A stretch of DNA of 63,968 nt, filler included, from Aduncisulcus paluster (GCA_024181965.1; 10 parts of 10 records of this genome joined end to end with filler, not necessarily neighbours in it); one strand, 5' to 3'. Positions 7,045-52,219 are shown, numbered from the whole stretch's first letter. Numbers and translations: made by a program. Notes: a model not told the origin generated them from the sequence alone.

Positions 7045-8466
7045 ATGACCACATATTATCGTAATTCATTCTTATTTTCATTTGTCGTATTCTGTTTATT
7101 TGGCTGTATTTTCTCCTCTACAACAGGTTTTGTTGAGTTCATGAATGGTGTTGTGGACGAATCATTGATTAATGAGAATTCTTTTCCCCTTGAATGCAAG
7201 ATTACCTCTTCTAAGCGTGTTTACATTGGACATTGTATCTCGACTCCTTCTCGTGATTGTGATGCTTCTGATGTTTCTTCATGGACTATTTATGATCCAA
7301 ACACAACTGTGAACATAGCTGATGCTTCTAATTCCATCGTTTCCGACTATTCCATTGATATTGCAGATGTTCTCGGTATAGATTCCCTTGGCATAGAAGA
7401 TACCGTATTTTCTGTTGATTTCTATGCGAATTATGGTTGTGAACCTGGAAGCATAGAAGATGAAACCACTTCTCTCCATTGTGTTACGAGTTCTGCACTA
7501 TTTGATTCCTATTCATTCGTCTTCTCTCCTCCTTCCCATTCAGACAATACGATCCGTCTGAAAAAGATGGGAATTAACCCAAAAGTTGGACCAAATGAAG
7601 AAGATTATACCACTTACACTGTTTCTGGAACACTCTGGGGATATATTGCCGAGGCGTCCGGCGTAATCCTTCTCATCCTTCTTATGGTTGGATCCAAAGA
7701 AGGCAAGAATGACATTCCTCCAAATGTGTACTATTTTGTTGGACTCCTTGGCATTGCTATATTAATGGGTAATGTAATAAGACTATATTTAATTGTTTGT
7801 GAGGTAAAATGGCTTTTGGGAGCTGACATTAATGACGACGAATGGGATGGTGTTTCAGAGTTCTTGGATAACCATACACTATGCGATGTCTTTGCATTCC
7901 TTGCTTTTATTATCTTATTTATTGTTCTATCGGTCAACTATAGCGGAGATGAGAATGGTCCAGAAGCAAAGATTAAGTTTGGAGGTTTTCTCTTCTTGGT
8001 GGGCGCTTGGGCTCTTTCTATTATCATTTTTCTCCCTGAATTGGATGCAGGAAGTGGCAGTGAAGATAATACCGGTTGGACATCGGAGTATTATGCACAC
8101 GAATATTATCCTTATGATAGGTTCTGGTTCATTCGAGTATTTTGTCTTCCTGTTGCAGTCAGTTTCGGGGGATTTGGATTTGGCATAGTTATCTCGTACA
8201 GGATGATTGGTAATGATATACCTAATTGTAACAATTGTTCTTTCTCTGTCTTTGTCACATGTGTGGGGTTAACTATTTCTATCATTGGTGCACAACTTTC
8301 ATCTGTGGAACCAGATGAGGATGGAAACCCAAAATGGACATTCTATTTGTATGGTGGACTTGCCGCTTTTGCAATTGGTTTAGGATTAATGGTCTGTGGC
8401 TGCTGCGGAGCTAAAAAATCAAAGTCAGGAAGTGGGGGTATTCAAATGACACCTTCTAGAAAGTAA
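7045..8466 (+). CDS. Orphan membrane protein: signal peptide, Cys-containing ectodomain, 7 TM helices
   Basis: Hydrophobic N-terminus (FLFSFVVFCLFGCIFS), seven hydrophobic segments, CGCC plus basic tail; alternative ATG at 6976. Confidence 0.75.
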   Translation: MTTYYRNSFLFSFVVFCLFGCIFSSTTGFVEFMNGVVDESLINENSFPLECKITSSKRVYIGHCISTPSRDCDASDVSSWTIYDPNTTVNIADASNSIVSDYSIDIADVLGIDSLGIEDTVFSVDFYANYGCEPGSIEDETTSLHCVTSSALFDSYSFVFSPPSHSDNTIRLKKMGINPKVGPNEEDYTTYTVSGTLWGYIAEASGVILLILLMVGSKEGKNDIPPNVYYFVGLLGIAILMGNVIRLYLIVCEVKWLLGADINDDEWDGVSEFLDNHTLCDVFAFLAFIILFIVLSVNYSGDENGPEAKIKFGGFLFLVGAWALSIIIFLPELDAGSGSEDNTGWTSEYYAHEYYPYDRFWFIRVFCLPVAVSFGGFGFGIVISYRMIGNDIPNCNNCSFSVFVTCVGLTISIIGAQLSSVEPDEDGNPKWTFYLYGGLAAFAIGLGLMVCGCCGAKKSKSGSGGIQMTPSRK

Positions 8467-13172: not shown

Positions 13173-13563
13173 GTGATATCAACAAGGCACTTTCAAAACA
13201 ATGGTTATCGGCTCCGCTGGCAGAAACCATAAGCAAATCCAGCATGTCGATGAATCCACTTTTTTCTACTATTTCGGGTGCTAGAGTTACGTGACTTCTC
13301 AGGGTATAACATTTCCGAGCGCCAATAAATTACTAAAGATTCATAAAGTTGATATCAATCCAAACGGTGATCAAAAGAAAGGAAGAAAAAGTGAAAGTTA
13401 ATAATCAATTTTTCTTGTTCATTCATGAAAGAATTAATCGTTAGAATAATATTAATCATTGTNNNNNNNNNNNNNNNNNNNNNNNNNNNNNNNNNNNNNN
13501 NNNNNNTTAATTAATTAANNNNNNNNNNNNNNNNNNNNNNNNNNNNNNNNNNNNNNNNNNNNT

Positions 13564-14574: not shown

Positions 14575-15114
14575 ACTCAATGTTGTTGTTTGCTCTGATA
14601 ATCAGAGTTTGATGTTAGTTTGTGTCACAAACTTTGTGATGATTCATCAGGTGATCCTGATTTGTCCGACAAATTGTGAGACTCATGAGTCTCAGACTCA
14701 CAATGTGAGTCACAAATTGACGGATGATGGAATGGGACTAATACTTCACCAATTTGTAACAGCTTGTTACAGGTTTACGAATCAACACCACTCCAAAGTT
14801 TGGACTCCAAACCCAGGGTCAGATTTCTCCATCGTATTGTGAAATTTGACCAGTAACTGGAATCCAGTTAACTGGATCATCCAATCTTCATCAATTTATT
14901 TCAGTCGTTTGGCAGTCGATTAAACTCAAGATCTGGAGTCAAGATCTTATTAGATTAGATCTTCGAAACATCAAAACGTTGGAGAAAAGTTTTCTCAGAA
15001 AAAATCAGATAAAAAACACCAATAATCTATTGGAATAATCATCAACCCCAAACAATTCCAAGCCTGAAGTTCGGGAGGAACTATTCCAACTTCCACCATT
15101 TAATTATTGTGGAT

Positions 15115-26385: not shown

Positions 26386-27135
26386 ATGTCAGCAATACAT
26401 CAATATACTCGGACTGGAAGCGATACAATTTCGCTTCAAACTCCTCATTGTATTGTAAGAGATATGATTAGGAAGAATAAGATGTTCTGTATAAATCCAA
26501 CAAAAGGAACTCGGGGAAGAAATGGTATGCCTGGTAAGCCCGGGGGAAATGGAAGAACTCCTATTTTACTTGGAAGAGATGGAACTGATGGTGGCCGTGG
26601 AGGCGATGGACAATGTGGTGGCCGTGGAGGCGATGCATCTGATCTTTGTGTCACTTTGTCTGGTGAATCTCTTGAGGCAATGGGTGTTGAATTGAATGTT
26701 CACATTGAACTTCCTGTCTCACACATTAATGTTCTTGAAACAGGGGACTCAATCATATGTTTTGATGTCTCAGGTGGAAGAGGAGGAGATGGTGGAAGAG
26801 GAGGAGACGGAGGGGATGGAGGAAATGGAGACGAAGGAGCAGAAGGAGCTGTAGGACGTGATGGTGGAAGAGGAGGAGACGGAGGAGATGGTGGAAGAGG
26901 AGGAGACGGAGGGGATGGAGGAAGAGGAGGAGACGCAGCCCTGTGTCGTTTTCGAGTTACTGATCCTAAATTTTTTATGCTCTGTGGTGTGGATTTACGT
27001 GGTGGTGTTGGTGGAGATGGAGCACCTGGAGGATCAGGAGGATATGGAGGAAGAGGTGGACCTGGAGGGAAGAGGAGGAGACGGAGGGGATGGAGGAAAT
27101 GGAGACGAAGGAGCAGAAGGAGCTGTAGGACGTGA
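26386..27135 (+). CDS. Gly-rich GGx-repeat protein (GGRGGDGG); 3' end frameshifted or misassembled
   Basis: GGx triplet blocks separated by short beta-like segments; 26794-26945 repeated out of frame at about 27068-27218. Confidence 0.65.
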   Translation: MSAIHQYTRTGSDTISLQTPHCIVRDMIRKNKMFCINPTKGTRGRNGMPGKPGGNGRTPILLGRDGTDGGRGGDGQCGGRGGDASDLCVTLSGESLEAMGVELNVHIELPVSHINVLETGDSIICFDVSGGRGGDGGRGGDGGDGGNGDEGAEGAVGRDGGRGGDGGDGGRGGDGGDGGRGGDAALCRFRVTDPKFFMLCGVDLRGGVGGDGAPGGSGGYGGRGGPGGKRRRRRGWRKWRRRSRRSCRT

Positions 27136-27351
27136 TGGTGGAAGAGGAGGAGACGGAGGAGATGGTGGAAGAGGAGGAGACGGAGGGGATGGAGGAAGAG
27201 GAGGAGACGCAGCCCTGTAAGAGGTGGACCTTCTGGAGAGAATATACCTGCNNNNNNNNNNNNNNNNNNNNNNNNNNNNNNNNNNNNNNNNNNNNTTAAT
27301 TAATTAANNNNNNNNNNNNNNNNNNNNNNNNNNNNNNNNNNNNNNNNNNNN

Positions 27352-28503
27352 GTGCTATAACAATCGGAAGAATCCTACGCGCAATACAATAGTCTATATA
27401 TTCATCAACTGTGTTGAATTGGGGGAAATCACGAAGCTGCCATCCAGCTATATGTAATTTATCCCGTATAACCTTCAATCCTTCTTTATATAAAGCATAT
27501 GAGGTTGGATATGAGAAAGAGAGGAAAAGAAACGTATGATCAAACGAGGAAGTGGAAATTTGTAAAGGGTATACCACCGATAATTAAAGGATATAGTAGT
27601 AGGATCACCTCGTATCTTCGGGATTGTAACATCATTAACCTCTTTGGAAATGACCTTAATTAAGGATATTATTCTCCTTTTTAGACGTTCGATTGATGGT
27701 AGCTCTATCCTTAAGCCAGCTTTCTTGAAGCCACGATATATTTCTGTATATAGTGATTCACTAATCTCGCGGGTAATCATTTTTTTTATGAACAGAATTG
27801 TCAATTCATCTTTTCCGGCGATTAGTTTACCATATACGTCAATATACTCAACTATAGGTGTGAATTCCATTGATTCGCTACGATCCAGCGATAAAGATGA
27901 GTGGCTTGACTGGAAAGGTTGAAACAATTCTGTAAGAAGGGAATCTGCATCCGCAGATACGCTCTCTGATAATATTTCATCCTCAGGATCATGAGGCTCA
28001 TGAACTATGAAGTCGCTCTCAGATGATGGGACATCTGCACCATACCCAAAGTCATCTTCTAAAGGGGGTAAACTCCCACAGTCTTCTGAAACTTCGTCAA
28101 TAGTGGGAATAATATGTGCTGTTGGAGTACAATATTGTAGAAACACAATTCTCACATCTTCATGTGTAATATCATCATTTCCAACCTGAGGTTGAAGTTG
28201 AACGAGTATATAAGCATGTCGTGGCTCATGAAATGTAAGAAGGAAAAATGTAAATAGTCGATATATATGATCACAATAATAAAACATCTCATTTGGCTCA
28301 GTACAAGAGCATTTCATGTCACAATGTTTCCAGAATCTTCTGTGTCTTCTTTTTTGTCTATGACCAAGTTGATTATGACACGTTTTACAGAGCATGCTCA
28401 CTTTTTTGATTTTCAAACTATCAATGTCGTAAATATCTATAATTGAAAACAAATTTGAAGGTATTAGTATTCCTTGATCAAAAATAAATACTTTTGGTGC
28501 CAT
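27352..28503 (-). mobile_element. Possible CACTA/EnSpm-like transposase N-terminal part, frameshifted near 27480 and cut by contig end
   Basis: ISESLYTEIY...LPSIERLKRRIISL and YKFPLPRLIIRFFS resemble CACTA Tnp2 motifs (LPxS..KK, YFPxxPRLxRxF); no catalytic residues visible. Confidence 0.4.
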
Positions 28504-29135
28504 TAATCGAGTTTGGTTTTGTAGATTAGCAGCAAAAGTCGGATGAAAGTATAAAAAAAGAATTTACTATTATATATCATATTCACGATATATTTCAGGA
28601 TGTTCAGAAGGTAAAATAGTTCTTTTAACAAATTCTTTCCACGTGTCAAGGTCCTTAAAGTGCTCAACGCCATAAAAATATATTCCCCTAATTAACAATG
28701 CTTTTTTAAAATTGAAAATGTCATATTTAAGTCTTTGTGTCTTCTTTTTTGTCTATGACCAAGTTGATTATGACACGTTTTACAGAGCATGCTCACTTTT
28801 TTGATTTTCAAACTATCAATGTCGTAAATATCTATAATTGAAAACAAATTTGAAGGTATTAGTATTCCTTGATCAAAAATAAATACTTTTGGTGCCATTA
28901 ATCGAGTTTGGTTTTGTAGATTAGCAGCAAAAGTCGGATGAAAGTATAAAAAAAGAATTTACTATTATATATCATATTCACGATATATTTCAGGATGTTC
29001 AGAAGGTAAAATAGTTCTTTTAACAAATTCTTTCCACGTGTCAAGGTCCTTAAAGTGCTCAACGCCATAAAAATATATTCCCCTAATTAACAATGCTTTT
29101 TTAAAATTGAAAATGTCATATTTAAGTCTTTGTGT
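28341..29135. repeat. 395-bp head-to-tail tandem duplication
   Basis: 28341-28735 equals 28736-29130; MAPKVFIF starts at 28503 and 28898. Confidence 0.93.
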
Positions 29136-29561
29136 TTCTTTTCTCTTCAAATTGCCATATCTTTCTTTTACCTTGTCCTTAATAAAGTCGTCATAAAATC
29201 TCAGAATTTCTTTTTCATCACATCTTTCAAACACGGTCTTTAAAACTGAATTTCTAGTCAATTCATCTATAATAATTTGTTTTTTTTCTTCAAATAATAA
29301 AATTCGTGGCTGTGTGACCTTCGAAGCATCAAATTCTTTTTTTAATAAAACAAGCAAAAATCTAAAAGAAATAATACTTACCATTCGTTCCACTTCAATC
29401 AAAACATCCTCAGCTAACATTAAAATCGATCTTAAATCTCGTAAAAGCAGTCTAGAAGGGTCTCTTGTTAATATGGGCAAGCCGTCTGAAAATCTTCTCT
29501 TCATGTCTTTTAAATCCTCTCTCATCTCTTGTATCATACTTCTTTCGGTCTCTTCTGGCAT
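28965..29561 (-). CDS. Hypothetical basic protein, co-oriented and closely linked to the putative transposase
   Basis: 198-aa ATG ORF ending 66 bp before the next ATG. Confidence 0.6.
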   Translation of the reverse strand: MPEETERSMIQEMREDLKDMKRRFSDGLPILTRDPSRLLLRDLRSILMLAEDVLIEVERMVSIISFRFLLVLLKKEFDASKVTQPRILLFEEKKQIIIDELTRNSVLKTVFERCDEKEILRFYDDFIKDKVKERYGNLKRKETQRLKYDIFNFKKALLIRGIYFYGVEHFKDLDTWKEFVKRTILPSEHPEIYREYDI

Positions 29562-30711
29562 CGTTGTTCACCAAATAATGTTTTTTTATCGCCAGAAAAA
29601 ATGTGCATTGATGACCTTTTCAAAAGCTAAATTAATCATAAAATATGTTTTTATGAAATAAAAATTCATTGTTATTATCCTCAATCATTGGTATAATAGA
29701 CTTTTCTATATCAGCTAATATAAAGTATTGAGTGCAGGAAAAGTATTATTATTATTTAAAATTCTTAGAATAAATTTCATTTTTTTATTTTATATTTCAC
29801 TTTTATGTATTTTACATGATATACCTATGCGCACAATTTAAACAGTCTTTTTTGTCAACATCATGACTATTAAAGCGGTCTCCCTTGGGTCTGATCAACC
29901 CAGGGGAGGCGTAAGACTTAATATTTTTTATTTATTTTCGTTCCCGCTCCTCCCCCCGATGACCCCCCCTGAATCTGTCTAACAATGTTTAAAAAGGGGG
30001 GGTCCCCAACGATTTTTTATTTTTTTTTGTTTTTTATTAATTAAGATTAAATTTTTATAGGAAAAATAGTAAGGATTTATTATATAACACAATTCTTGCG
30101 TTAAACACATATTTTTAGATGTATAACATATATGTCATCACTACAATATGGAGCGGATTACATATCAGTAAATCTTATGTTTTCCATAATGTTGAACTTA
30201 TGTTTTACTGAAAAAAGAGTTCGTTGTGTATCTTATTCAAGAGCATTTTGAGTAGACATGTCTACTCATTAACATAAAACAACCCAATGAATTCGGTATG
30301 AACGGGCGCATTGTCATTGGTAGTATTGACATTACGAATGGAACAAGAGTCGTGTGGTGGACAAGAACAGGAAGGCACAGGAAATGCAGACCCAGTGGTC
30401 CAATCTGTAAATGGGATCGGAAAATTCCCCCTCTTGACGCGTTGCGCATCCACATCAATGGATACTGACAGCGTGTCTTCCTCTTCCGCATCATCTATTC
30501 CACCGTTCAATTGGTCAGGAGCACACCCCGTGGGAGAAATGGGGACAGCAGAAATAGCAGGGACAATGGGGGAGGATATACCCGAATCGATAGAACCTAT
30601 CCCATATTGGGAAGAATCCAATAGAGAAGATCGGGGGGGGAAAGACGGAGGATATAAAGGACCAAAGGACGGAAGAGAATGAAATGGTTGAAACATGTGC
30701 TCCATGTCTTC

Positions 30712-30798
30712 TGTCATGATTCTCATATGATTCTATTTATAGATCATCAATCCATCTGTATAAACAATAAATTTGGCTTAGTTTATTATTGAGCAACA
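30712..30798 (+). repeat. 5' LTR, 87 bp
   Basis: TGTCATG...GCAACA, identical to 35907-35993; contains TATAAA and AATAAA. Confidence 0.96.
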
Positions 30799-30811
30799 AT
30801 TATATAATTGA

Positions 30812-32881
30812 ATGCCTGATAAAACAGTCAAAAAATTGAAGGAAGAAGAGGAAAAAACCACTATTAAGGCTCCGTTTCTGAAAGAACTTTCAACCGAGGC
30901 ATGGAGCGAATTTATGAGGAACTTTGATCACTATGCATCAATTGGGGGACACCGTAAATGGCCGGAGATTGTTGATCCAGTTGTCCTTAGCCTCATAAAA
31001 GACTTGGCGAAGGTCCCTGACTTCGAAGCGAAATCCCATCATAAGAAGGCGAGAGCGGCGGTAAACGCGATTTTTGCTTCGACTTCAGACATCTCACTAT
31101 ATGACGAACTGGGATTGATTAAGATGAAAAAAGAGCTATCGGTCGACGCTTTATTGGACTACATTAAGCGTTTTAAAGACGTAAGAGGGAGAGCAAAAGG
31201 CTTGGGTACGACGGAGGAGATCGTACAAAGATTTATTGACAATTTAAGTTGTGAGAGACTTAAATGCCGAATCTTGGCGGCGTTGGACACTAAAAAAGCC
31301 GATTTAGCCGAAGTGGTCAGAACGTCAGTCGTTCAAATCAAGATTGTGATCGAAAATGAACTCGAACACAAAGCATTAGAAAGAGAAAAACTTTCATTCA
31401 GTGATGCTGGTAAGGAATGCCACTTCTGTCATGAAATAGGACATATCATGAGAGATTGTCCAAACGGTGGAAAAAGAAGAGTTGGTAGTCGTCCTCTACG
31501 TGGTAGACATGACCGAGGAAGGGGTAGAAGAACCCCATTTATTAAGAACCGGGATACGAGGTACAAGAGGTTTTTCCCGGGCGTGGTCTGTAAGAAGTGT
31601 GGAGAACTGGGTCATTATCCAAGCTCATGCCTTGGAACAAAGTCTAGTGATACCAGTAAAGGAGACCGTAAGTATTTTATCAAGAGTTTTATTCAAAACG
31701 AAAATTCTAGTTTTGCTAGGTATGGCTCTTTATCGTCCGGAAGCAGATCGTTAGACGTTTCGTTTTTGCTAGATAGTGGGGCATCAACCTCTGTTATCTC
31801 CCTGAGATTGGCGTTGGAACTCGGATTTAACAATACGGAAACATCAGACAGAACTGCAGAACTTGGGGACGGATCGCTAGTAACCACACTTGGAAGCATG
31901 GAATTAAAGTGCATGATTCCTGGGTATGACAGAATATCAATAGAATTTGAAGAGCTATTCTGCGTTTTAGAAATGAAGAATCCCTCTTTTGAAGTCCTAC
32001 TTGGCGAGGATTGCATCTTAAATAATAGTCTTTTGGATTGGCAACAGCCTGAAAAAAAGGTTCCGGAAGAAGGCCTGGAAGATGAGCTCGACGACTCTCT
32101 GGTGGGGCTACCCATGTTAGAAGAGGCGACAATGGAGCTTAAAATGGAGGGAACCAAAGAATTTAAAGACGCCCTATTTGATATAATTAAGACTTATGAA
32201 AGTAGGGTGAACAGATTGGAACCAGCTTGTGTCGAGGAGTATACATTGAGATTGAAAGACGGAACAAAGCCCATCGCACAGAAGAGACGTTCCATACCAC
32301 AAGGTTTATTTCTGGAAGTGAAGGACCAGATAACAGAATTGAAAGAAAAGGGTTTCATAAGAGACTCAAAAAGTGAGTTCGCCTCACCTTTGGTATTAGT
32401 TGATAAGAAGGATGGGGGCACACGAGTATGTGTAGACTACAGACTCATTAACAGGTACATAGTGGATGATATGTTTCCCATTCCGAGAATGGACGAGATG
32501 TTTGCAGCTCTGGGAGGTATGAAAGTATTCACTACACTTGATTTAAAAAGTGGGTATTATCAGGTCGCTGTCGAGGAAAGTGTGAGGAAAGTACTAGCTT
32601 TCAATACACCTTTTGGGTTGTTTGAATGGAATAGAATGCCATTCGGCGTAAAGACTGCACCTGGTCACTTTCAGCGGTCAATGAATAAGATATTTCTAGA
32701 TTTGATCGGTCGCTGCTGCTTTATTTATCTAGATGATGTACTTGTGTTCGGTAAGACAGAAAACGAAATGCTAGAGAACCTTAAAATAGTATTGGACAGG
32801 TTGGGAAAATACAACCTCGCATTGAATTACAAGAAATGTAATTTTGGATCAGGTGAAATATCTGGGGTTTCTAGTGGATGA
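30812..32881 (+). CDS. Gag-Pol part 1: gag, two CCHC knuckles, aspartic protease, reverse transcriptase
   Basis: CHFCHEIGHIMRDC, CKKCGELGHYPSSC, LLDSGAS, LDLKSGYYQ, MPFG, YLDD. Confidence 0.97.
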   Translation: MPDKTVKKLKEEEEKTTIKAPFLKELSTEAWSEFMRNFDHYASIGGHRKWPEIVDPVVLSLIKDLAKVPDFEAKSHHKKARAAVNAIFASTSDISLYDELGLIKMKKELSVDALLDYIKRFKDVRGRAKGLGTTEEIVQRFIDNLSCERLKCRILAALDTKKADLAEVVRTSVVQIKIVIENELEHKALEREKLSFSDAGKECHFCHEIGHIMRDCPNGGKRRVGSRPLRGRHDRGRGRRTPFIKNRDTRYKRFFPGVVCKKCGELGHYPSSCLGTKSSDTSKGDRKYFIKSFIQNENSSFARYGSLSSGSRSLDVSFLLDSGASTSVISLRLALELGFNNTETSDRTAELGDGSLVTTLGSMELKCMIPGYDRISIEFEELFCVLEMKNPSFEVLLGEDCILNNSLLDWQQPEKKVPEEGLEDELDDSLVGLPMLEEATMELKMEGTKEFKDALFDIIKTYESRVNRLEPACVEEYTLRLKDGTKPIAQKRRSIPQGLFLEVKDQITELKEKGFIRDSKSEFASPLVLVDKKDGGTRVCVDYRLINRYIVDDMFPIPRMDEMFAALGGMKVFTTLDLKSGYYQVAVEESVRKVLAFNTPFGLFEWNRMPFGVKTAPGHFQRSMNKIFLDLIGRCCFIYLDDVLVFGKTENEMLENLKIVLDRLGKYNLALNYKKCNFGSGEISGVSSG

Positions 32882-34958
32882 GCAGGGTCGAAGGATATCT
32901 CCTGAAAAATTGGATAATCTCAAGAAGGTTAAAAGACCTCAAACGTTGAAAGAAGTTCAGAGCTTCATGGGAAAAATGAATTTCCTTAGAGAGTTTATTC
33001 CACATTTTTCTGTGTTATCAACACCAATATCCGATTTGATTAAAGAGAAAAAACCGGTGAAGTGGAAGAATGAACAAGAAATGGCGTTTAAAAGAATAAT
33101 CAAGGCGTTGGAATTACAACTGACGATTTGTGCACCAAAGTTAGATGGCCAATTTATTCTCCGGACTGACGCATCGAAATTAGGAATTGGTGGGGTTCTC
33201 CTGCAAAAGGAGGGTGAAAAAGAATCCTTAATCTCATTGTTCTCCCGAAAATTCTCAAAAAGAGAACAAAACTGGTCTACTATAGAACAGGAGTGTTTCG
33301 GTATTGTGTTTGGAATTCAGAAGAACAGACATATTCTGGTCGGATCATTTTTTACTGTTGAGACCGATCACAGGAATCTCCAGTTTCTCTTTAAGTCGGA
33401 AGTCCCAAAGCTAGTGAGGTGGCGGATGCAGATTAGCCACTATGCTTTTAGTATCAAACATATAAAAGGTTCAGAGAATGGATTAGCCGATTTTCTCTCG
33501 AGAATCGAAATCTCACAAAGGGATATGATCCCTCAAATGAAGAAAAAATCTGTTCCTTCAGTGGAAAACAAGGTGATTTTACTCTCGGGTGAAAAGGAAA
33601 TTAAAAAGAAAAACGAAGTTTCTGAAGCCCAGAACGTACCGACTAAAGACATTGAAGATAAATGGGAAACACTGAGAATTACTCATAAAACACTGGGACA
33701 TGCAGGCCCTAGTCTGGTGACAAGAGCGTTGAAGAATAGAAATATATCCTGGAAAGGAATGAAAAATGATGCGGAAGAAGTGGTGAAGAAATGTCTTTAT
33801 TGTCAGAAATTAAAAAAGGGAAAAGATCCTATGGTTTTTGGGACAATTAAAGAATCAGAACTCTTTAAAACTATTTCCATCGACACCGTGGGACCGTTAG
33901 AACCTGACAAGAACGGCTATAAATATCTGATGGTGGCTATCTGTAATTTCAGTCGATTCGTATTTATTATCGCACTGCGAACAATGTCTAAAGAAGAAAC
34001 TGCAAGAGCACTGCTGACCAGGATCTTGGCAACTCACGGAGTGCCCCATTGTATTCGATCCGACGGGGGTGGGCAGTTCAAGAACGAATTGTCGGCTGAG
34101 TTATGTAAAATGCTGGGCGTATCCCGAATTATTACAAAACCATATAATCATGAGGAAAATGGGATCGTCGAAAGAGTTAATCGCGAGATAAGGAAACTGA
34201 TTCGAATAGAGAGTATGCAAGAAGACACCCAGGATTACGAGATGTTCGCTGCGCTAGCAGCGTCAGCTCTAAACGCGAGAGTACACTCGGCTACGGGTTT
34301 TGCTCCCCATACGTTGTTATTCGGGTGCAGAAAAAGATTATCCTTGGATCTCTCTGAAAAACCAGAAATACAGAATAGCATCGAACATGAATTTATTAGC
34401 GATTTCGTAAAAAGACACCAGAGAATCACTGCAACGGCAAAAGAGAAGCAGGAAGAAGAAATAATGAAAGAAAAAGAAAAAGTGGTGGACAAAAAGTTTA
34501 AAGTAGGGGAAAAAGTGTTTGTCCGACCTGCAAAAGACATTAGAAGGAAGTCTCAACCTGCTCTCGATGGACCGTTCACGATAATAGAGAAATTATCAGA
34601 CTATCTATATAAAATTGAACCCCTAATAGGTGGACAAGCAAGAGAAATCCCCGTCAGACGACTACGAGAGTATGTAGAAGGAACCGAGACTCCGGAAGAA
34701 ATTAAAGCAGTTGTTGGCAGAGATGAAGAAGAGTTAGTCGTCGAAAAAATACTAAAACATAGATATGGAACAAAAAAGCCGGTGGAATTCAAGGTAAAAT
34801 GGAAAGATTATCCAGTATCTGATTCAACCTGGGAATACTACCAAACGGTTGAAGATTGTGAAGCCTTGGAGAATTATTTAAAAGAAAAACCGAGCTTAAA
34901 TAAGAAATTGGAAGAAAAAAGGTTAAATATAAAGAAAAATAAGGAGATGGAAGAATAG
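32844..34958 (+). CDS. Pol part 2 after frameshift: RT end, RNase H, integrase, chromodomain
   Basis: VKYLG, TDASKLGIGGVL, TDHRNL, ADFLSR, HHCC, DTVGP/SDGG/GIVERVN, GPF, VEKILKHR...VKWKDY...STWE. Confidence 0.97.
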   Translation: MDQVKYLGFLVDEQGRRISPEKLDNLKKVKRPQTLKEVQSFMGKMNFLREFIPHFSVLSTPISDLIKEKKPVKWKNEQEMAFKRIIKALELQLTICAPKLDGQFILRTDASKLGIGGVLLQKEGEKESLISLFSRKFSKREQNWSTIEQECFGIVFGIQKNRHILVGSFFTVETDHRNLQFLFKSEVPKLVRWRMQISHYAFSIKHIKGSENGLADFLSRIEISQRDMIPQMKKKSVPSVENKVILLSGEKEIKKKNEVSEAQNVPTKDIEDKWETLRITHKTLGHAGPSLVTRALKNRNISWKGMKNDAEEVVKKCLYCQKLKKGKDPMVFGTIKESELFKTISIDTVGPLEPDKNGYKYLMVAICNFSRFVFIIALRTMSKEETARALLTRILATHGVPHCIRSDGGGQFKNELSAELCKMLGVSRIITKPYNHEENGIVERVNREIRKLIRIESMQEDTQDYEMFAALAASALNARVHSATGFAPHTLLFGCRKRLSLDLSEKPEIQNSIEHEFISDFVKRHQRITATAKEKQEEEIMKEKEKVVDKKFKVGEKVFVRPAKDIRRKSQPALDGPFTIIEKLSDYLYKIEPLIGGQAREIPVRRLREYVEGTETPEEIKAVVGRDEEELVVEKILKHRYGTKKPVEFKVKWKDYPVSDSTWEYYQTVEDCEALENYLKEKPSLNKKLEEKRLNIKKNKEMEE

Positions 34959-35756
34959 AATTCCAAAACTCGCAATGAGTAAATTATTATAATACAAAAC
35001 ATTAAAATTAAAGAATATTATAAAATATTATTAAAGATTTCCATGGATTACCACTATTTATTATTGTAAATAAGAAGATACGGAGAAAAAAATAATTTCT
35101 TAAATTATAAGAGCATAAAAAAGGTAGCAACATACAGCTGACGAACTATAAAAGAACAAAACCACATGGAACCAAAACGAAATACTCTATACAACGAGAA
35201 TACGGAAGATTGAAAGAGAAAAATACTGAGAAGATTAATTTAGCCTATATCAGGGAAGATATAAGTTGACAAGAGTAATAATAATAATATTGGAATTGAA
35301 ATCCAGAATATTCAGAGAATTATCAATGAAAAAAGCAAAATCATAAAAATTCGAAGAAAAACATAAAACACAATTAAATATGACATTTTAGATAAGAGAT
35401 ATAAAATATACAATTAAAAAGCTCAACATAACCTTCATAAAAACTTATAATAATTAACAAATTGTCAGAAAAGTGGAAAATCTACTCGCCCGTTATGATA
35501 ACATACATTTTCACTAAAAAAAGGGGCTACCCTTTCATTTAGAAGTTATTATTAAACACAATCCACCGAAATAATTTTAAATAATTGAGAAACTCCGTGG
35601 GAACAGAATTTTTGCTAGAAAACTCTGACCGCGATGATTATAAAGAGCTCTATCGCAAGATGAGCTACTATATGACGGATTCTGTTTAATAGGGGGGTAG
35701 AGGAGATAAAATTAGTGATTTTGAGAAAAAAGAGTTCTGGTGTGGTTCATCAAAAT

Positions 35757-35828
35757 TGGGTCCAGCGGGACTTGAACCTAGGACTCTCCTCTCGCAAAGA
35801 AAGGAAAAACCAGTTGAACCATCGAAGG
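35757..35828 (-). pseudogene. tRNA-like sequence with Pol III A and B boxes inside the retrotransposon 3' UTR
   Basis: 72 nt; T8, A14, G18G19, TTTCT/AGGAG stem with loop TTGCGAG, GGTTCAAGTCC; acceptor, D and T stems do not pair. Confidence 0.65.
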
Positions 35829-35896
35829 CTATTTGATAAAAAATATATATTATATTAATTATATAGGATATGATATAAAGAGTGGAATGAAGATCT

Positions 35897-35906
35897 AGGG
35901 GGGTAG
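35897..35906 (+). promoter_or_regulatory. Polypurine tract
   Basis: AGGGGGGTAG abutting the 3' LTR. Confidence 0.85.
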
Positions 35907-35993
35907 TGTCATGATTCTCATATGATTCTATTTATAGATCATCAATCCATCTGTATAAACAATAAATTTGGCTTAGTTTATTATTGAGCAACA
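35907..35993 (+). repeat. 3' LTR, 87 bp
   Basis: Identical to 30712-30798. Confidence 0.96.
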
Positions 35994-37842
35994 TCTTCCG
36001 TCTTCCCAGGAAAGAATGTAGACGTTGAAGGCATGGTAGAGAAATTTCCCATGGTGAAATGGGAAACGTGCAGATTCGCAGCATAATTGTCATCAATGGC
36101 ACACCTTTTGCCAAATAATTTTCTTCCATGTATCGTTGTCCGTTCCCCTTCATCGTGGTAGGACATGGGATTGTGAACATACCTAGATGGTACCGTGGGC
36201 AATATTACACTGGGCTTAAATTAATGAATTGCGAAAAAGACATCGAAAAACGGCCACTTTGATTATATATAAAAAAATTGCCTGATGAAAGGGCTTTTTT
36301 TTGCCTCTCCACTTTTACAGCGACAAAAAACGGCCTAGGAAGCAGAGGTCACCGGAGAGCGGGGAGTACTGAAGACACCTCCGGTGACCTTAATTTTAGA
36401 AAAAAAAGATAGAAAATAAAACGTTAGCTTAAAAAAAAATGAAAAAATAAAACAAAAAATAAAAATTGAAACCTGTTGGTTACTAACCAATCGTACAAAA
36501 GAAATATTTCAGTCGGATATACTGAAAACATGTCGTGCAACCCAAAATCGTAGAATAGAATAGATTTATTAAGTTCAAATAATTTCAAATTTATTTTTAA
36601 AAACATAAAAACTTCTTTCATTTATGGGATACAATCATCTTTTTTATTGGTATAAAATACGTTTTTATATTCACTGAATTAGAATAAATAATAAAAATAT
36701 ATTTCATTTTTATGCAGAAATAATCCAACAATATCTTTGAGTATACACATATAACGAAGCAAAATGTATTTTTGTATCTAGGGTTATCATGAGGATATTT
36801 CAAATAAATTTGTTAGATCATCTATAATATTAACCAATGAATTTATTTTTTATATTATTTCAAATTCGGAAAATTTGGGACACTCTGGTTCTAAAGAACC
36901 TTTACTTAGCTCATTGATAGCCTTTCCCTCAATCTCTTTGACAACTTCTTTTAAATTGTTATTGTGGTTTCTTGCAGCATCATCTATAATAGTGGTTGGT
37001 GTGTTTCCACAACACCGTTTGATAGGAGAAGCTTCACTCAATAAAGAGAGAGGAAGGGGGTGCGGGTCCGGGGTTTCAATAGTAATTACCTCCTCATCCT
37101 TTAATAATGTAGTATCGCATACATGTTACGATATTTAGGATAATATTATGTCAGAGATTCACTAAAACGAAACAATCACCACACCGGCCACATGTGTGAA
37201 GCGGGGTCAATACATGTAGAGAGATCAATATCTCGCACAATTTGCATGACTAGATCACTGTCATCTGATGTTGGCNNNNNNNNNNNNNNNNNNNNAGGGT
37301 TATCATGAGGATATTTCAAATAAATTTGTTAGATCATCTATAATATTAACCAATGAATTTATTTTTTATATTATTTCAAATTCGGAAAATTTGTGACACT
37401 CTGGTTCTAAAGAACCTTTACTTAGCTCATTGATAGCCTTTCCCTCAATCTCTTTGACAACTTCTTTTAAATTGTTATTGTGGTTTCTTGCAGCATCATC
37501 TATAATAGTGGTTGGTGTGTTTCCACAACACCGTTTGATAGGAGAAGCTTCACTCAATAAAGAGAGAGGAAGGGGGTGCGGGTCCGGGGTTTCAATAGTA
37601 ATTACCTCCTCATCCTTTAATAATGTAGTATCGCATACATGTTACGATATTTAGGATAATATTATGTCAGAGATTCACTAAAACGAAACAATCACCACAC
37701 CGTCCACATGTGTGAAGCGGGGTCAATACATGTAGAGAGATCAATATCTCGCACAATTTGCATGACTAGATCACTGTCATCTGATGTTGGCATCCCGAGG
37801 CAAGGATGTTTCTTCTTCATTCTGACTTCTCCACTCTCCTGT

Positions 37843-38380
37843 TTAATCTTCAGATCTCGATTGTGAAGAACTTGTTGAAGATTCATCGTCGGAAGCGGAT
37901 TCCGCAGATTCGGAGTCTTCTTCATCCTTTTGATTGATTGCATATGGAAATCCAATCTGTAAACAAGGTAAAATGAATACCCCCCCAAAAGATATTCTAT
38001 TCAGCGTAAAATATATAGCGAACGCCTCCTTCTCAATCACCATCCAGTTCAGACTCCTTTTTCTTCTCAAGATCACTACGTAATTTAATACAATTACGAT
38101 ATCCAGACCAATGTTTAAATAAATTTTTTACACATTCGAGAAGACTTGACCAGCGAATTTCGAAATGAATGATTGGGGGAAGATCATCAAGAATCTTTTG
38201 TTGAGTTGGTGCTTCCTTCTGCACGCCCAGGAGTTTTGCCACTAATAATACAAATTGTCGGACCTTTTTGAACTTAATTAAGAATAAATCTCTTAATAAA
38301 AAATGAACAGTGGGTTACAACACACCCAAATCCCCGTTCAATCAGACCCTTACAAATGGAAACCATTGCTGCATAGGTTT
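37843..38380 (-). pseudogene. Degenerate hAT-like transposase fragment
   Basis: IHFEIRWSSLLE matches the RWSSLLE motif of neighbouring hAT ORFs. Confidence 0.55.
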
Positions 38381-38623
38381 CCATTTTTTTTCAATGAGCT
38401 GTTTCAATAATTTCATTGCAAAAATGGAATAAAATAAATTACAATAACAGAATAAATATTTTATTATTTGCCCAATTTATAAGTTTATTGAATACTCGAT
38501 AATTTGCATTTTTTTCAGATTTTCTTGATTTGATTCACCTACAAATATTATGAGTAAGTTTGTTATTAATTTATTTAAATGAAGCAATTATTGATTTTAA
38601 TTTAACGTAATAATTGAAATAGT

Positions 38624-40537
38624 TTATTCGACTTCTTGATTTGAATTGAACGTGAAAAAAACATTATTCATAAGCGTATCAGTAGATTGATTGGCACGTA
38701 ATGGTTGATCATATCGACGAACGATACTAAAGAGCCTTTCAATCGAAGCTCCTGACATCGGCAATGACATGAAAATATCTTGGATTCTTTTTAGCCAAAA
38801 AAAGTTATCTTCAATTGAGATATCTTCCTTATCGTTAACTGATTTACAGTATTCTCTTAATTGATCCTTTTCTCGATCTGACAGCTCAATATTTATATGA
38901 CTTATAGATGTTTTTAGTTTGATCTCCTCAATCGTGAAATCATCATCCAGAGGTTAAAACAAATTATTCCATAATATATGCTTAAATTAATCTTTAGAAG
39001 TTTAAATGCTCGTTTGAACGGGGTGGATGTGATTTGACTCGAACACCATTCTGATTCTAGTCTTTCTGCAAACGATGAGATTGATCGAAAAGCTTCAACA
39101 TTGGACATTTTAAATTGGGCACACTTGATTGATTTTAATGCGCACGGAATAAATTCCTTTGTTAATCTTCGTTTAAAGTTTTTGTAGGCTTGATTTTGCA
39201 AAAAAGTTCGACAACCCACAACTTGCTCAGTTGGCGTTTTGAATTTTAAACTTGCAAGAATTTCATCCCATCTTAAATAAATTTTAGAAAACTCTTCTAA
39301 AAGTGACGACCACCGAACCTTCGTATACCTTGGTGGACTAATATCTAAGAGTGCACATAATGTCCGATTTTCCTGCGATCCACTACTTAATACCATATTT
39401 AAATCCTCAAGAAATATTTCTATTTGCTCAAAGAAAAATGAAATATAGTGTTGAATAAGAGTATTAAGAACATGGGCTATGCACGGAACCCACAACTGTC
39501 CGTATCCTTCCTCCACAAGTTGAGAGGCTACGGCAACCATTAGGGGTTCTCTATCGGTTACAATAGATGATATTGATGAGTTCCTTATTCCAATCTCTCT
39601 AAATGCTTCTTTTAAAGAATCACATAAGATATCCGTTGATGATGGTAGAACTTCTTGGATCTTGGCCGGGCAACATGCCAATATCCAAGATATCTCTTTT
39701 ATCATTCTTTTCATTGTATGTTTATCAATATCTGTTCCCCTTTCTTTTACCCCAACTTGAGAATGGCCTTGTGACCAATTCTTCTCAGCCCAAAATGATT
39801 TTTGGATTTCTCTTGAAAAGGCATCCTTAAACATATCATCTTTTTCTTTGCCAACATCAACATATCCAACAGCCTTTGTTACCTTTTTGTTGCTCACAAG
39901 AATGGCCAAAACGTTTTTCCCCCTACTTATGGTCTTATCCAAGATAACCGAATATATTCCAACGAGAGCACTCTTTCGTTCTTCTTCAAGCGATTTTCTA
40001 GCCACACGATGAGAGGTGTCATATAACGTTGATATACTTAATTTAATAGGGGATTTTAAAAACAAATATAAAAAATTAAGTTCTTCTTGCAGTTCAGAAT
40101 CCAGAAATCTAACGATGGCTGGAATGGGGATTCCAGAACTCATTGCCTTTTTAACACAGGTTTCTCTAAATCTTCTTTTATATGGAACAATTTTTTGTTC
40201 TTATCTTTTTTAATGAGATGTCCAAATGAGAATTGTGTCCAAGACTTAATATGTGTGAATGGAATGATCTAATCCCATTCAATTCGACAAAACAGACACA
40301 GCATCTAATAATGGGTTCTGTATCAGTTTCAATGATTCGAAAATTGTCCATAACGTCTATTTTAATTTCATCGAGAACTTCGTCCTTTTTCATGCAATGC
40401 CGGAAACGTCGAATCTGTTTATAAAGTTGCCATATTGGCTTGGATTTGAACTTACCATAGATAGTAGGTACTAATAATTTAATAGTTTGATTTGACATCG
40501 AAAGAACAAAATTGAAATGTGTCATTTTTCGTGTCAA
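38624..40537 (-). mobile_element. hAT-family transposase, frameshifted
   Basis: CxxC...H...H finger (40178-40537), VILDKT, IVTDREP, PCIAH, VRWSS, and LPMSGASIERLFS in another frame near 38726-38765. Confidence 0.85.
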
Positions 40538-41035
40538 TCCATGAACCTGATCTCTTTCATTGTATTATAAAATATATTAAATATTTATTGATATTTATTT
40601 ATTGAATGTTTCAAATATGATAATATAATGATTATCTGAATGGGTGAAAAATCATCCGGAATCTCTGCATTGCTGGTTCCCGGTCAGAAATAATTGATAC
40701 TATTTCTGACTTTTAAATTTCAGACTTTTCAAGCTTATTAACTAATGTTAGAATAACACGGCTGTTGCCAAAAGCAGACGTTTTTATTATTTTCTTTAAG
40801 GGGTATTATTATTGAATATTTAATATATATTTTATAATACGATTTTAATTAATATATTTATTTCGATATTAGAATGTTTATTACTATCTTATTACAGAAG
40901 ATCACATCTGGAAGTTTTTGTGTTCTTTGCAGATCACTTTTTTTACTTCTCTTCGCGCATTTCTTTATTCCCAAATTAATAAATTTGCTCCACCATCATT
41001 ATAAAGGTTATTAAACCAACAATAATATTATTGTT

Positions 41036-41347
41036 ATGCCAAGCCCCACGACCAATATTACCTCATCTCGTGTCGAAGTTCCTACTTTAAAGGAGTATTC
41101 TTTGAAAAATTTGACCGAATTTTTTACTCGTTACGAGGCTTACAAAGCTGATCCCTCTGTTATCAGACCAACTCAATGGCATCGACTTTTCGATCCTCCT
41201 CTTTTGGCCGCACTACAACTCGTAACAGGTATAAAAACAATTTCTAATGAGTCTGAGCTAGCCGAATTTAAGAAAAAGCTCATTGAATTAGATGCCCCTT
41301 CCTCGTCATTTGACCTACACACGGAATTATCGGTCATCCATATGGAA
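41036..41347 (+). mobile_element. Gag N-terminus of a third gypsy-like element, cut by contig end; candidate 5' LTR about 40746-41021
   Basis: VPTLKEYSLKNLTEFFTRYEAY parallels APFLKELSTEAWSEFMRNFDHY and APMLTKFSKEDYFRFKTEFKKY of the other two gags; DLHTELSVIHM parallels SLYDELGLIKM. Confidence 0.75.
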
Positions 41348-41447
41348 NNNNNNNNNNNNNNNNNNNNNNNNNNNNNNNNNNNNNNNNNNNNTTAATTAAT
41401 TAANNNNNNNNNNNNNNNNNNNNNNNNNNNNNNNNNNNNNNNNNNNN

Positions 41448-41668
41448 ACACGAACGGGTCTGAGAGTGTTGTTTGCTTAAATAATAGTTGTTTGTTTACG
41501 CCAAGAGAATGATCACGAAGAGGAGAACAGGGTTTCGGCCATGAGATGACCTCTTCAAGTGAGAGGAGGATGTGGTGACCATTCTCAGGGACATTCTAAA
41601 AATAGATTGGTTCGCTCGAGATCTGTTTATTAATAAATTGGACCGCATTATAGTTTAGTTTGGCCACA
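41448..41668. repeat. Dispersed repeat, LTR-like end (...TTGGCCACA), truncating gypsy element 2; second copy 44816-45030
   Basis: About 215 bp near-identical on two contigs with the same right boundary. Confidence 0.85.
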
Positions 41669-43950: not shown

Positions 43951-44187
43951 CTGGCTCGAGGTTTGGTAATCGGCAGTGGGTTCTAATTTTTAATAACGCT
44001 TCTAATACAAAATTAATTACGAAAATATGAATAATTTTTACTATTATGAATAAATATTTTGTTTTTATTTTTCTAATTGTCAATCACTTAGAGTTAGCAT
44101 TTCCACATTCAATTGTATTGTTTTCCTTGAAAAAAGGAATGTTATTTTTAATATATAAAAATATTTTATTGATTTTAAATATTATTT

Positions 44188-44468
44188 TTATTCTTCCTTA
44201 TCTGAATATGCTTCTAACCGTCCACCAAGCTTTTTGTTGAATTTCTTCATTGAATTTAACATAAGTGTAGATACCGTTTGACTGGCTCTTGACGGAATAT
44301 TACAATGATGTACGACGCTAAAAAAGCGTTCAATTGCTGCGCCAGACATTGGCAAGGTTGAAAATTGTTGAACTATTTGGTTCAAATGGAAATATTGCTT
44401 TTTGAAATTAATTGTGGAGCCCATCGAAACTTTATCACAATATTCATTTAATTGCTTCAATTGTTGCG
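44188..44468 (-). mobile_element. hAT transposase C-terminal dimerisation domain, partial
   Basis: LPMSGAAIERFFS. Confidence 0.8.
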
Positions 44469-44815: not shown

Positions 44816-45030
44816 AACGGGTCAAAGAGTGTTGTTTGCTTAAATAATAGTTGTTTGTTACGCCAAGAGAATGATCACGAAGAGGAGAACAGGGTTTCGG
44901 CCATGAGATGCCCTCTTCAAGTGAGAGGAGGATGTGGTGACCATTCTCAGGGACATTCTAAAAATAGATTGGTTCGCTCGAGATCTGTTTATTAATAAAT
45001 TGGACCGCATTATCGTATAGTTTGGCCACA
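44816..45030. repeat. Second copy of the LTR-like dispersed repeat
   Basis: Matches about 41453-41668. Confidence 0.85.
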
Positions 45031-49771: not shown

Positions 49772-52219
49772 CTATTCCAAAAGCAAAGAATCCATAGAAC
49801 CAAGGCTTGATGCGCTATAATAGTCAAACCGATTACATTCGAATAAAGAACCATAAAATCCAGAATTTACAGTTTGACACAACCCATAAAACCCATCTTT
49901 ATCCTTTTCACTGAAACCTAAGGTGGACAAAAACTTGGTAACATTTCGTTTAAATTCACCAGCTCTGCTTTTATCCATTGGAACATGCAACATGACTCTT
50001 GCCCCAAATTCTTCATCGTCACACCTATACATGCTCTCGAACCTTCTCAAACTATCATCCTCAGCCAACCTGGTGGATGGTAACTCACGTCCAATATCCC
50101 TTTCGATCTCCGCCTTGACAAATTGGGTGTACACGCAGGCCTTATTCACGCATTGCTCTGTCCAGTGTGTGATCAAAGTCTCTTTCAACCTGATAGTGAC
50201 GCTTTGCAGGGTTGTATTCACAAACGAAAGAATATACGGGAAGGGTTTCCTCAACATAACATGTGAAGTGGGACTAAACAAAGCTCTCTTCCTAACCTTT
50301 TCATGAAGATGGTGGAAATCATTGTTCTCTTTGGTTTTGTAGGGAACAAAATTTCTCACAACGTCACTCACTCTTACACCATCCCGTACATGACTCTCTC
50401 GTTTGCTGTGAGCAACGGAGAGAGGTTTCCCGAGTTGCATCAACACTTTTCCTCCTTTTCTTGCAACTTCCACAATTCCACATTCTGGCCCAACCTCATC
50501 AAACACACACATGCATATATGCGAGAACACTATTGGATTTGAGAGGGTATGAGGAGGGGGGGCAGCGATGGGAACTTTCTTCACTCGCTTCATATCACGA
50601 TGACCAGAAGACTTGCGGGTTGACCCAGACTCGCCATACCCAACCCCACTTTTCACTGACAAAACCTGCCCATCGACACACTCTGACCACATATATAAGG
50701 ACTCGAATGTGGCATTCTGGAGAGACATTCCAGGCAGCAAAGGTCGTGGAAACGAGGGCTTAGCTGTGAAAGACGAGGAAGAACTGCTCGAAGAGTGATG
50801 TCTGTGGTGTCCGCGACCAGCAATAGGCGAGGAAGCGATGGGATGAGACGTGGTCGAAAGAGAAGAGAGAGAGCTCTCACTGGGTGGCAAAGAAGAGGAA
50901 GTTGAGGACAACGAGGAAGTCGACGAAGACTCAGAACTTGGAGAACCGCTCGAATGGGAAGAAGAGGAGGATGTAGGGGTTAGGGAAACCATTGGAGAAG
51001 GGTAAAAACTTGATCTACCTCCGTGTTTCCAAGATTCCTTAGTGGAGTGGACAAGTGGATCCTTTGTGGAAATATGCTGTGAGTGATGAACAGAAATATG
51101 CTGGTCTTCGTCATCTTCAGGATTATATATGCACACTTTCCCTTTCTTCTCACGAGCAAGACAGACTCGAAGAAGCCTAACAATACTCTGAGCAACATCA
51201 ACATCAGCCGTGGAACTAATAACACAAACGTTGAAGGAACACGCATGCAAGAGGGAGATCAGAAGTGCAACAGAAGCCGAAGAGAGCATCGAAAGGGCAG
51301 AGACAAAGGGAACAGAGGCGGAAGCAGGAGGGAAAGAAGAGTGGGAGCGAGGAAGACGACGTTCATATGAAGATGGGAATAAACTGAAACCTTTGGAATA
51401 ACTTTTATCAAATGAACCCACTGTTGGCATCCTAAGAGATCCACCAAGCCGATCAGGAACGAATTGTGGGAGAGCCAACAGAGGAACAGGGTTTGGGGGA
51501 TCTTGAGGTGAATAGTCGAACGATGGAAATGATTTCCAGATATACCCTGGCGTAATATGATCGATTGAGGCTGATATGACTCCATGACTATATATATGAA
51601 GATATTTGATCTTTTCTATAACATTATCAACAATATCCATCACATCACATTCGTTATGGGACAAAGTTAATTGCGTGGAGCGACTTATTCGTTTACCTTC
51701 CTTGAGGAGAGTCTCAACGAGAAAAGAGGTTGGTGGAAATGAAGCTTTAGGATGACAGCGAATAGTTATTGCTATTCGGGTAGGATTCATGGTATTAAGA
51801 ACATTATTTAAATCAATTGCTGATTGAGTCAGGTGTGATACTGGGCCGCTTTTGGATGAAGCTCGCTTCTTTCTTCGAGATCTCTTCGCGGCAAAAAGAA
51901 AGCAGACTAAGAATTGTAAATTTCGTTCATTAGCACCATAATCAGCTTTAGTAACAAAAAATAAAACCTTTGACTCTATATGATAGCGAATAGGATCTAA
52001 TATTGAGTGTATAGCGTAATTCTCACCGTAGTCCGATACTTTTCCACTTTCTCGGAAAGATGTCCTCCCTAATTCACCAGCTAAAGCTAATCTAGCATCC
52101 TCTTTTGAATATAATTCTCCCTTATCATTGGGAACAGAGTGTAAAATCCTTGGACCATATGTGTTGTCAAAATAACACAATTGGGTTTGAATAAAAAATG
52201 ATTTATGTTTAATTATCAT
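49772..52219 (-). CDS. C9orf72-like DENN/longin protein
   Basis: CYFDNTYGPRI and LAGELGR...ESG parallel C9orf72 AYWDNILGPRV and LNGEILR..ESG (recalled); similar C-terminal helices. Confidence 0.7.
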   Translation of the reverse strand: MIIKHKSFFIQTQLCYFDNTYGPRILHSVPNDKGELYSKEDARLALAGELGRTSFRESGKVSDYGENYAIHSILDPIRYHIESKVLFFVTKADYGANERNLQFLVCFLFAAKRSRRKKRASSKSGPVSHLTQSAIDLNNVLNTMNPTRIAITIRCHPKASFPPTSFLVETLLKEGKRISRSTQLTLSHNECDVMDIVDNVIEKIKYLHIYSHGVISASIDHITPGYIWKSFPSFDYSPQDPPNPVPLLALPQFVPDRLGGSLRMPTVGSFDKSYSKGFSLFPSSYERRLPRSHSSFPPASASVPFVSALSMLSSASVALLISLLHACSFNVCVISSTADVDVAQSIVRLLRVCLAREKKGKVCIYNPEDDEDQHISVHHSQHISTKDPLVHSTKESWKHGGRSSFYPSPMVSLTPTSSSSSHSSGSPSSESSSTSSLSSTSSSLPPSESSLSSLSTTSHPIASSPIAGRGHHRHHSSSSSSSSFTAKPSFPRPLLPGMSLQNATFESLYMWSECVDGQVLSVKSGVGYGESGSTRKSSGHRDMKRVKKVPIAAPPPHTLSNPIVFSHICMCVFDEVGPECGIVEVARKGGKVLMQLGKPLSVAHSKRESHVRDGVRVSDVVRNFVPYKTKENNDFHHLHEKVRKRALFSPTSHVMLRKPFPYILSFVNTTLQSVTIRLKETLITHWTEQCVNKACVYTQFVKAEIERDIGRELPSTRLAEDDSLRRFESMYRCDDEEFGARVMLHVPMDKSRAGEFKRNVTKFLSTLGFSEKDKDGFYGLCQTVNSGFYGSLFECNRFDYYSASSLGSMDSLLLE

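Follow-up and report, generated by a model that had tools for sequence, protein, structure and literature searches.

A recurrent palindrome at the position of the primer-binding site in a compact chromovirus from the fornicate Aduncisulcus paluster

Introduction

How does reverse transcription begin in a long terminal repeat (LTR) retrotransposon that has no tRNA-type primer site behind its 5' LTR, only a palindrome that runs up to the start of gag? The question is raised by element A, a retrotransposon at 30712-35993 in a 63,968-nucleotide stretch of DNA from Aduncisulcus paluster (the whole stretch is called the window below), and by element C, the remnant of a second element in the same window that begins in the same way. 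A. paluster is a free-living fornicate metamonad, and its genome announcement describes a fragmentary draft of 29.4 Mb with a GC content of 39.1% in which mobile elements are not mentioned (PMC9933649). The first-pass annotation of this DNA took the palindrome as a sign of tRNA-independent priming, either by a snap-back hairpin or by pairing between two genomic RNAs. Here we describe a young family of chromoviruses from a fornicate metamonad, a group with hardly any described mobile elements, and we ask which primer its unusual 5' end could accommodate.

Results

Element A is a complete, young chromovirus

Element A is a Ty3/gypsy (Metaviridae) chromovirus, complete and young. Its parts are listed below in window coordinates, with open reading frame abbreviated to ORF and reverse transcriptase to RT.

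30707-30711, plus strand: left target-site duplication, TCTTC, identical to the five bases at 35994-35998
30712-35993, plus strand: element A, complete LTR retrotransposon
30712-30798, plus strand: 5' LTR, 87 bp, TGT...ACA; repeat family D10, 100% identical to 35907-35993
30797-30810, no strand: perfect 14-bp palindrome CAATTATATAATTG, overlapping the last 2 LTR bases; its A/T core is 30799-30808 (10 nucleotides, nt)
30799-30811, plus strand: leader, 13 nt from LTR end to gag ATG; by position the presumed minus-strand primer site
30812-32881, plus strand: ORF 1, gag with two CCHC knuckles, aspartic protease and RT (Pfam)
32844-34958, plus strand: ORF 2, in another frame; end of RT, RNase H, integrase (H2C2 and core) and chromodomain (Pfam)
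34959-35896, plus strand: long A-rich non-coding stretch from the pol stop to the polypurine tract, without an ORF of at least 120 amino acids and without an Rfam match
35897-35903, plus strand: polypurine tract AGGGGGG, read from the sequence, 3 nt upstream of the 3' LTR
35907-35993, plus strand: 3' LTR, 87 nt, second copy of the 30712-30798 repeat
35994-35998, plus strand: right target-site duplication, TCTTC, matching the left copy

Both LTRs start with TGTCATG and finish with GCAACA, and the two 87-nt copies are 100% identical. Over its two ORFs the element encodes gag(CCHC), protease, RT, RNase H and integrase in that order, followed by a C-terminal chromodomain. The Pfam matches are RVT_1 (5.8e-32), Asp_protease_2 and zf-CCHC in ORF 1, and RT_RNaseH (1.3e-29), rve (9.9e-13) and Chromo (PF00385, 4.7e-12, residues 632-680) in ORF 2. 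With its domains in Ty3/gypsy order and a chromodomain in ORF 2, the element is the chromovirus that it was first taken to be. The nearest solved structures are those of Ty3 RT (4.6e-43) and Ty3 Gag-Pol (5.6e-40; PDB 4ol8 and 7q5b), and an identical public protein is the spliced gene model of A itself, named 'Transposon Ty3-I Gag-Pol polyprotein [Aduncisulcus paluster]' at NCBI.

Element A is present in two sequencing runs of one sample, and no RNA run was listed as containing it; the two runs, used as contigs, were examined for further copies. These runs may be the assembly's own source and are therefore not independent of it. Departures of the contigs from the window fall exactly on 30712, 35907 and 35993, which fixes the LTR limits of A independently of the repeat search. 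One of the copies passes from a different flank into the LTR exactly at 30712 and continues to 31107 with a single difference (at 30906) in 396 nt. At least one further copy of A thus lies elsewhere with the same succession of LTR, palindrome and gag start and with the palindrome site unchanged, which shows that the A family is multi-copy and young. Neither variation at the site nor molecule ends were seen in the contigs of the two runs. The same contigs bear on the integrity of pol, which in the window's copy is split into two overlapping frames inside RT (32844-32881): a same-sample contig has a 5-base indel at 32847, exactly at the frame break, and the public gene model spans the break with an intron. 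Given this indel, the break looks either private to the window's copy or like an assembly error.

The roughly 950 nt of A-rich non-coding sequence that precede the polypurine tract are unusual for so compact an element. Within this stretch, approximately 35757-35800 resembled by eye the antisense 3' half of a tRNA (T-arm and acceptor, without CCA); neither ARAGORN nor Rfam returned anything there, and the candidate stands unconfirmed. Rfam gave no match at gathering score over the window and none at E <=1 over element A. The element sits in an open frame: its removal in silico together with one duplication yields a 223-codon minus-strand frame across the insertion point, now divided into 30262-30726 (minus) and 35999-36220.

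A palindrome fills the space between the LTR and gag

The 5' LTR of A ends in CAACA at 30798, is not followed by TGG, and is succeeded by ATTATATAATTGA. The gag ATG (30812-30814), 13 nt ahead, is the first possible start codon, as an in-frame TGA (30809-30811) lies immediately before it. All of the layout initially described for this site, including the 14-bp palindrome, can be read at 30797-30814. In LTR elements the end of U5, the unique 5' region of the repeat, is defined by the base at which extension of the primer's 3' end begins, as established in the retroviral scheme. Since the start of minus-strand synthesis sets this boundary, the bases from 30799 on must be the primer-binding site whatever the primer is. 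They are also the core of the palindrome, so the sole perfect complement certain to be available is this stretch itself, in the element's RNA.

The same arrangement is found in element C, whose preserved parts are the following.

40919-41021, plus strand: putative 5' LTR of C, from alignment to A; start approximate, end at 41021 placed by the shared CAACA block
41018-41035, no strand: perfect 18-bp palindrome AACAATAATATTATTGTT, whose inner 14 bases equal the site of A except for one swapped pair
41036-41347, plus strand: 5' part of the C gag, truncated after 104 codons where its contig piece stops

In C, AACAATAATATTATTGTT has CC directly upstream and ATGCC directly downstream, so that the layout of A recurs as had been reported. 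No second copy of the LTR of C is present in the window, and its end at 41021 therefore rests on likeness to A. The two gag products are 23% identical over 92 amino acids (E 4e-7), and C is a real but very distant relative of A. The leaders measure 13 nt (A) and 14 nt (C); the palindrome fills both, and a leader of this length leaves no room for a TGG-type tRNA primer site. The two elements had been placed on the same contig, and they do lie in one piece (27352-41347), although an N20 scaffold gap separates them and C is truncated at 41347, where the piece ends.

Long palindromes as such are not enriched in this DNA: the window holds 6 perfect palindromes of at least 14 bp against 5.6 expected from 50 Markov-1 simulations. 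Two of these 6 fall precisely in the space that separates an LTR end from a gag ATG. Two other long palindromes have similar ends, namely TGAGTAGACATGTCTACTCA (20 bp, 30249-30268), which lies 450 nt upstream of element A, and TGAGACTCATGAGTCTCA (18 bp, 14677-14694). A search with the motif, allowing up to 3 mismatches, gave no further real match within the window.

The two sites are one conserved block with a paired substitution

The first-pass annotation held that the two palindromes differ in sequence and share only symmetry and position. The first half of this statement did not survive alignment, since 12 of the 14 inner bases are identical and the block CAACAATWATATWATTG is kept at 15 of 17 positions between the two sites. 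This contrasts with the surrounding sequence: the codon-threaded gag genes agree at 120 of 303 nt (40%) and 24 of 101 amino acids, and the rest of the LTR can be aligned only with 34 gap columns. The second half stands. The two differences within the 14-mer, at positions 5 and 10, are mutual pairing partners (T.A in A, A.T in C), so that all 7 pairs are kept in both elements, 6 of them invariant and 1 compensatory; when the partner is shifted by 1-3 columns, only 23-69% of positions pair. Symmetry and position have thus been retained across the divergence of the gag genes through one swap. We estimate the chance that two changes would fall on partner positions and keep complementarity at about 0.03-0.08. 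Judged from the alignment, then, the two sites are a single conserved block with one apparently compensatory swap, a relationship newly recognized here that suggests a constraint on symmetry without proving it.

Candidate primers and RNA structures

A TGG-type tRNA primer site, a usual though not universal feature of Ty3/gypsy elements, is absent after the 5' LTR of A, and ARAGORN finds no tRNA genes in the window. For a host RNA to serve, its 3' end would have to match ATTATATAATTG. We also looked for a complement of the leader within the element, as would be required for priming in the manner of the fission yeast element Tf1. RNAduplex pairs the LTR with the leader at -5.7 kcal/mol in A (shuffle mean -6.8) and -4.8 kcal/mol in C (shuffle mean -5.9), and a duplex at least as good arises in 69% (A) and 73% (C) of 1000 shuffles. 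The absence of a Tf1-style complement, on which the earlier reading depended, therefore holds for both elements, and a cis self-primer of the Tf1 type is not supported. Elsewhere in A, Watson-Crick complementarity to the leader extends no further than a 9-mer (at 35857, within the 3' non-coding sequence), which is not significant (17% of 300 simulations).

The palindromes themselves pair much better between molecules than within one. The predicted homoduplex has an energy of -12.0 kcal/mol in A and -17.2 in C, as against 0 and -2.9 kcal/mol for the palindrome folded as a hairpin. Small hairpins that include the flanks remain weak (-3.2 and -3.7 kcal/mol), and longer folds of the leader do not improve on shuffled sequence (z -0.23 and -1.40). 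The hairpin of C is nevertheless better than 198 of 200 shuffles, and that of A is predicted to be lengthened by GCA/UGC pairing in which two start-codon bases take part. Because the homoduplex is far stronger than the hairpin, pairing of two RNAs is favored and the snap-back version of the original proposal, with its weak hairpin energies, becomes less likely.

Relatives in public data

Among metagenomic contigs (metagenome_contigs) relatives of A were found at 77 loci, of which 18 (at least 4 kb) were examined and the leaders of 15 inspected. Their RTs are 32-52% identical to that of A, their gag genes are unrelated, and they serve here for contrast only. A TGGCG... site lies roughly 200-260 nt upstream of gag in 5 of the 15 leaders, and a palindrome of at least 14 bp is present in none of the 15. 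With such sites and no palindromes in these distant relatives, the layout appears special to the lineage of A and C. No protein relatives were present in viral_contigs, and the motif followed by ATGCC had no match in viral_contigs or genome_contigs. When the gene model of A itself is set aside, public proteins reach at best 28-43% identity and match in the RT part only, so the lineage is unsampled in public data. The main texts of open journals yielded neither a palindromic primer site in an LTR retrotransposon nor LTR elements of this protist group.

Discussion

The genetic layout of element A is a real, unusual anatomy within the known class of tRNA-independent LTR elements. The proposal that priming is independent of tRNA has fared well in part, in that a TGG-type site is missing and the palindrome recurs; the symmetry, on the other hand, could be explained by a dimerization site that involves no new mode of priming. 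The reading we lean towards is that the palindrome at the primer site allows the element to prime itself through a dimer of its own RNA, which we consider a serious candidate that still falls short of being probable.

From the anatomy, the missing tRNA-type site, the conservation and the single swap we infer a pairing, a nick and a priming step that may run as follows. Two packaged genomic RNAs would pair at the palindrome to form an A/U-rich duplex of 14-18 bp, and one strand would then be nicked within this duplex or at its 3' side. A model for such a nick exists in Tf1, whose RNase H nicks its own self-primer. The new 3' end could prime the copying of the few bases of U5 and of the terminal repeat (R) on the partner RNA. 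Plus-strand strong-stop synthesis would subsequently copy the primer, as it copies the tRNA end in retroviruses, with the consequence that the palindrome halves might re-template each other in every cycle and turn a single change into a symmetric pair. A more specific version, in which primer binding and dimerization would use the same site and each RNA would be nicked in the duplex and prime on its partner, strikes us as possible yet doubtful. If this version is correct, it would represent a third way of starting reverse transcription in LTR elements, beside tRNA priming and the cis self-priming of Tf1, and the palindrome would renew itself in each generation, as copying of the primer returns it to the progeny.

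Several observations weigh against this reading. Only two lineages and one compensatory event are available, and in a shuffle control confined to these two sequences 247 of 500 shuffles reached the observed value, so the control has no power. The conservation of 12 of 14 bases would also be expected if the site had a fixed host partner, whether RNA or protein. Furthermore, the palindrome overlaps the LTR by 2 nt in A and 4 nt in C. If the primer's 3' end coincided with the 3' edge of the duplex, DNA synthesis would begin within the LTR and the terminal CA would be lost. The nick would therefore need to fall 2 nt or more (A) or 4 nt or more (C) inward from that edge, and placing it there is ad hoc. 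The outer pairs may instead act as a stem around the primer site, much as the U5-inverted repeat (U5-IR) stem encloses it in retroviruses and Tf1. A palindromic primer site would also carry a cost, as plus-strand strong-stop DNA could fold on itself. Finally, the split reading frame of pol may mean that the copy of A in the window is dead.

Known systems provide parallels for parts of this arrangement. Tf1 of Schizosaccharomyces pombe and Tj1 of S. japonicus use their own RNA as primer, and self-priming has been demonstrated or predicted in the Tf1/sushi and Tcn1 groups (PMC4600332, PMC6317226). Like Tf1 and Tj1, A is a Ty3/gypsy element with a chromodomain and without a tRNA-type TGG site; in Tf1 and Tj1 the primer is the transcript 5' end, which pairs with the site across R-U5 within one molecule, whereas the site of A is complementary only to itself. 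Reports on two other chromoviruses describe a polypyrimidine stretch in place of the canonical primer site in Skipper of dictyostelids (PMC5006619) and, in SM-Tcn1 of Selaginella, a T-rich leader with LTRs of 440 bp and a priming mode given as unknown (PMC2864245). A resembles both in being a chromovirus with a conserved non-tRNA sequence at the primer site, and differs from them in that theirs is a polypyrimidine or T-rich stretch rather than a palindrome and is set among longer LTRs and leaders. Self-complementary sequences are familiar from dimerization: PAL1/PAL2 of Ty1, DS/PAL6 of Ty3 and the DIS of HIV-1 (PMC6844567, PMC11381356) lie in the 5' part of the genomic RNA, as does the palindrome of A, and link two copies there. 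They are 6-7 nt long and lie apart from the tRNA primer site, whereas the palindromes of A and C are 14-18 nt long and occupy it. Ty3 is the best relative of A among solved RT and Gag-Pol structures, and the two share a 5-bp target duplication and the domain order. Ty3 itself uses initiator tRNA-Met on a bipartite site and has 340-bp LTRs and no chromodomain; A differs in its 87-bp LTRs, its chromodomain and its lack of a tRNA-type site.

The strongest alternative is that the palindrome serves only in dimerization, packaging or a translation switch, and that a host RNA primes on the same or overlapping bases, an explanation we regard as conceivable though on the unlikely side. It would account for the symmetry without a new mode of priming, and it fits the reports that the 5' palindromes of Ty1 and Ty3 RNA are required for dimers (PMC6844567, PMC11381356). 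The palindrome adjoins the AUG, and its high conservation would suit a fixed partner. Switches between U5 and the AUG are known from retroviruses, and the hairpin of A, in which the GCA/UGC pairs reach the start codon, is reminiscent of them. The short leader is harder to reconcile with this alternative, as it offers no separate primer site, so that any primer must still pair with bases of the palindrome. A host RNA complementary to the palindrome must itself carry the palindrome, and since A and C differ at two positions, one host RNA cannot fit both perfectly. We also know of no nuclear tRNA with an end like the A/T-only 10-mer.

Alternatively, the symmetry might operate on DNA, as a two-fold symmetric site for a dimeric host or element protein, such as a transcription factor, downstream of an 87-bp promoter. 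A symmetric swap in both half-sites would also be expected here, as would high conservation, and with so short an LTR the control elements may extend into the leader; internal enhancers occur in Ty1 and copia. The sites contain no G.U pairs or other RNA-only signals that could decide either way. We nevertheless think a protein site improbable, as it would leave the primer problem unsolved and does not predict that the palindrome of either element should exactly abut the LTR end as well as the ATG.

Still less likely is cis self-priming of the Tf1/Tj1 type, in which the start of the transcript would fold onto the leader and be cut off as primer. A chromovirus without TGG would be in keeping with the Tf1/sushi and Tcn1 groups (PMC4600332, PMC6317226), but the LTR-leader duplex of both elements is matched by most shuffles and the best complement elsewhere is the non-significant 9-mer. 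That A/T-rich leaders are palindromic by chance and without function we judge very improbable: although the window has no excess of palindromes, the cores consist of A and T only, which makes symmetry cheap, and there are just two cases, 15 of 17 bases are kept as compared with about 40% in the adjoining coding sequence, the position is kept relative to both LTR end and ATG, the sole two changes are pairing partners, and the hairpin of C outdoes nearly all of its shuffles.

To our knowledge, Tf1 is the one LTR element without a tRNA site for which the start of reverse transcription has been settled. The priming question still stands for Skipper and SM-Tcn1, among others, and A, with 87-bp LTRs and a 13-nt leader, presents it in a stripped-down form. 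Since the primer site is confined to the conserved palindrome, the question can be tested with few constructs.

Other features of the window

A third element, which is decayed, bears neither for nor against self-priming through an RNA dimer.

43863-41668, minus strand: element B, gypsy-like gag-protease-RT, 26% identical to A, decayed

Element B has no recognizable LTR, start codon or palindrome motif and does not align to the gag of C. It ends in RNase H at the start of a 173-nt sequence that is repeated at 98% in the next piece (41496-41668 and 44858-45030; family D9). Upstream of B, at about 44100-44330 (minus), a frame ends by eye like a hAT dimerization domain, and a hAT-like remnant at 38914-40143 (minus) contains a 409-amino-acid ORF whose match to DUF659 stays below threshold.

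The window consists of contigs strung together through N44-TTAATTAATTAA-N44 linkers (2918-3017, 13463-13562, 27252-27351, 41348-41447 and 8 more), with N20 scaffold gaps at 17099, 21675, 37276, 47211, 54069 and 60775. Sequence on the two sides of the N20 gaps is exactly duplicated over 190-300 nt or more (families D2-D8), which looks like unresolved scaffolding overlaps rather than biology. Of 9 long intron-less ORFs (496-1071 amino acids), 6 have no Pfam family at E <=1e-4 (3093-6308, 9343-12222, 49772-52219, 53930-56029, 940-2838 and 6976-8466), and the other 3 encode a PARP-domain protein, an LRR protein and a DEAD_2 helicase. Family D1 (26767-27245), a repeat in coding phase spaced at 9 and 27 nt, lies inside the ORF at 26386-27135.

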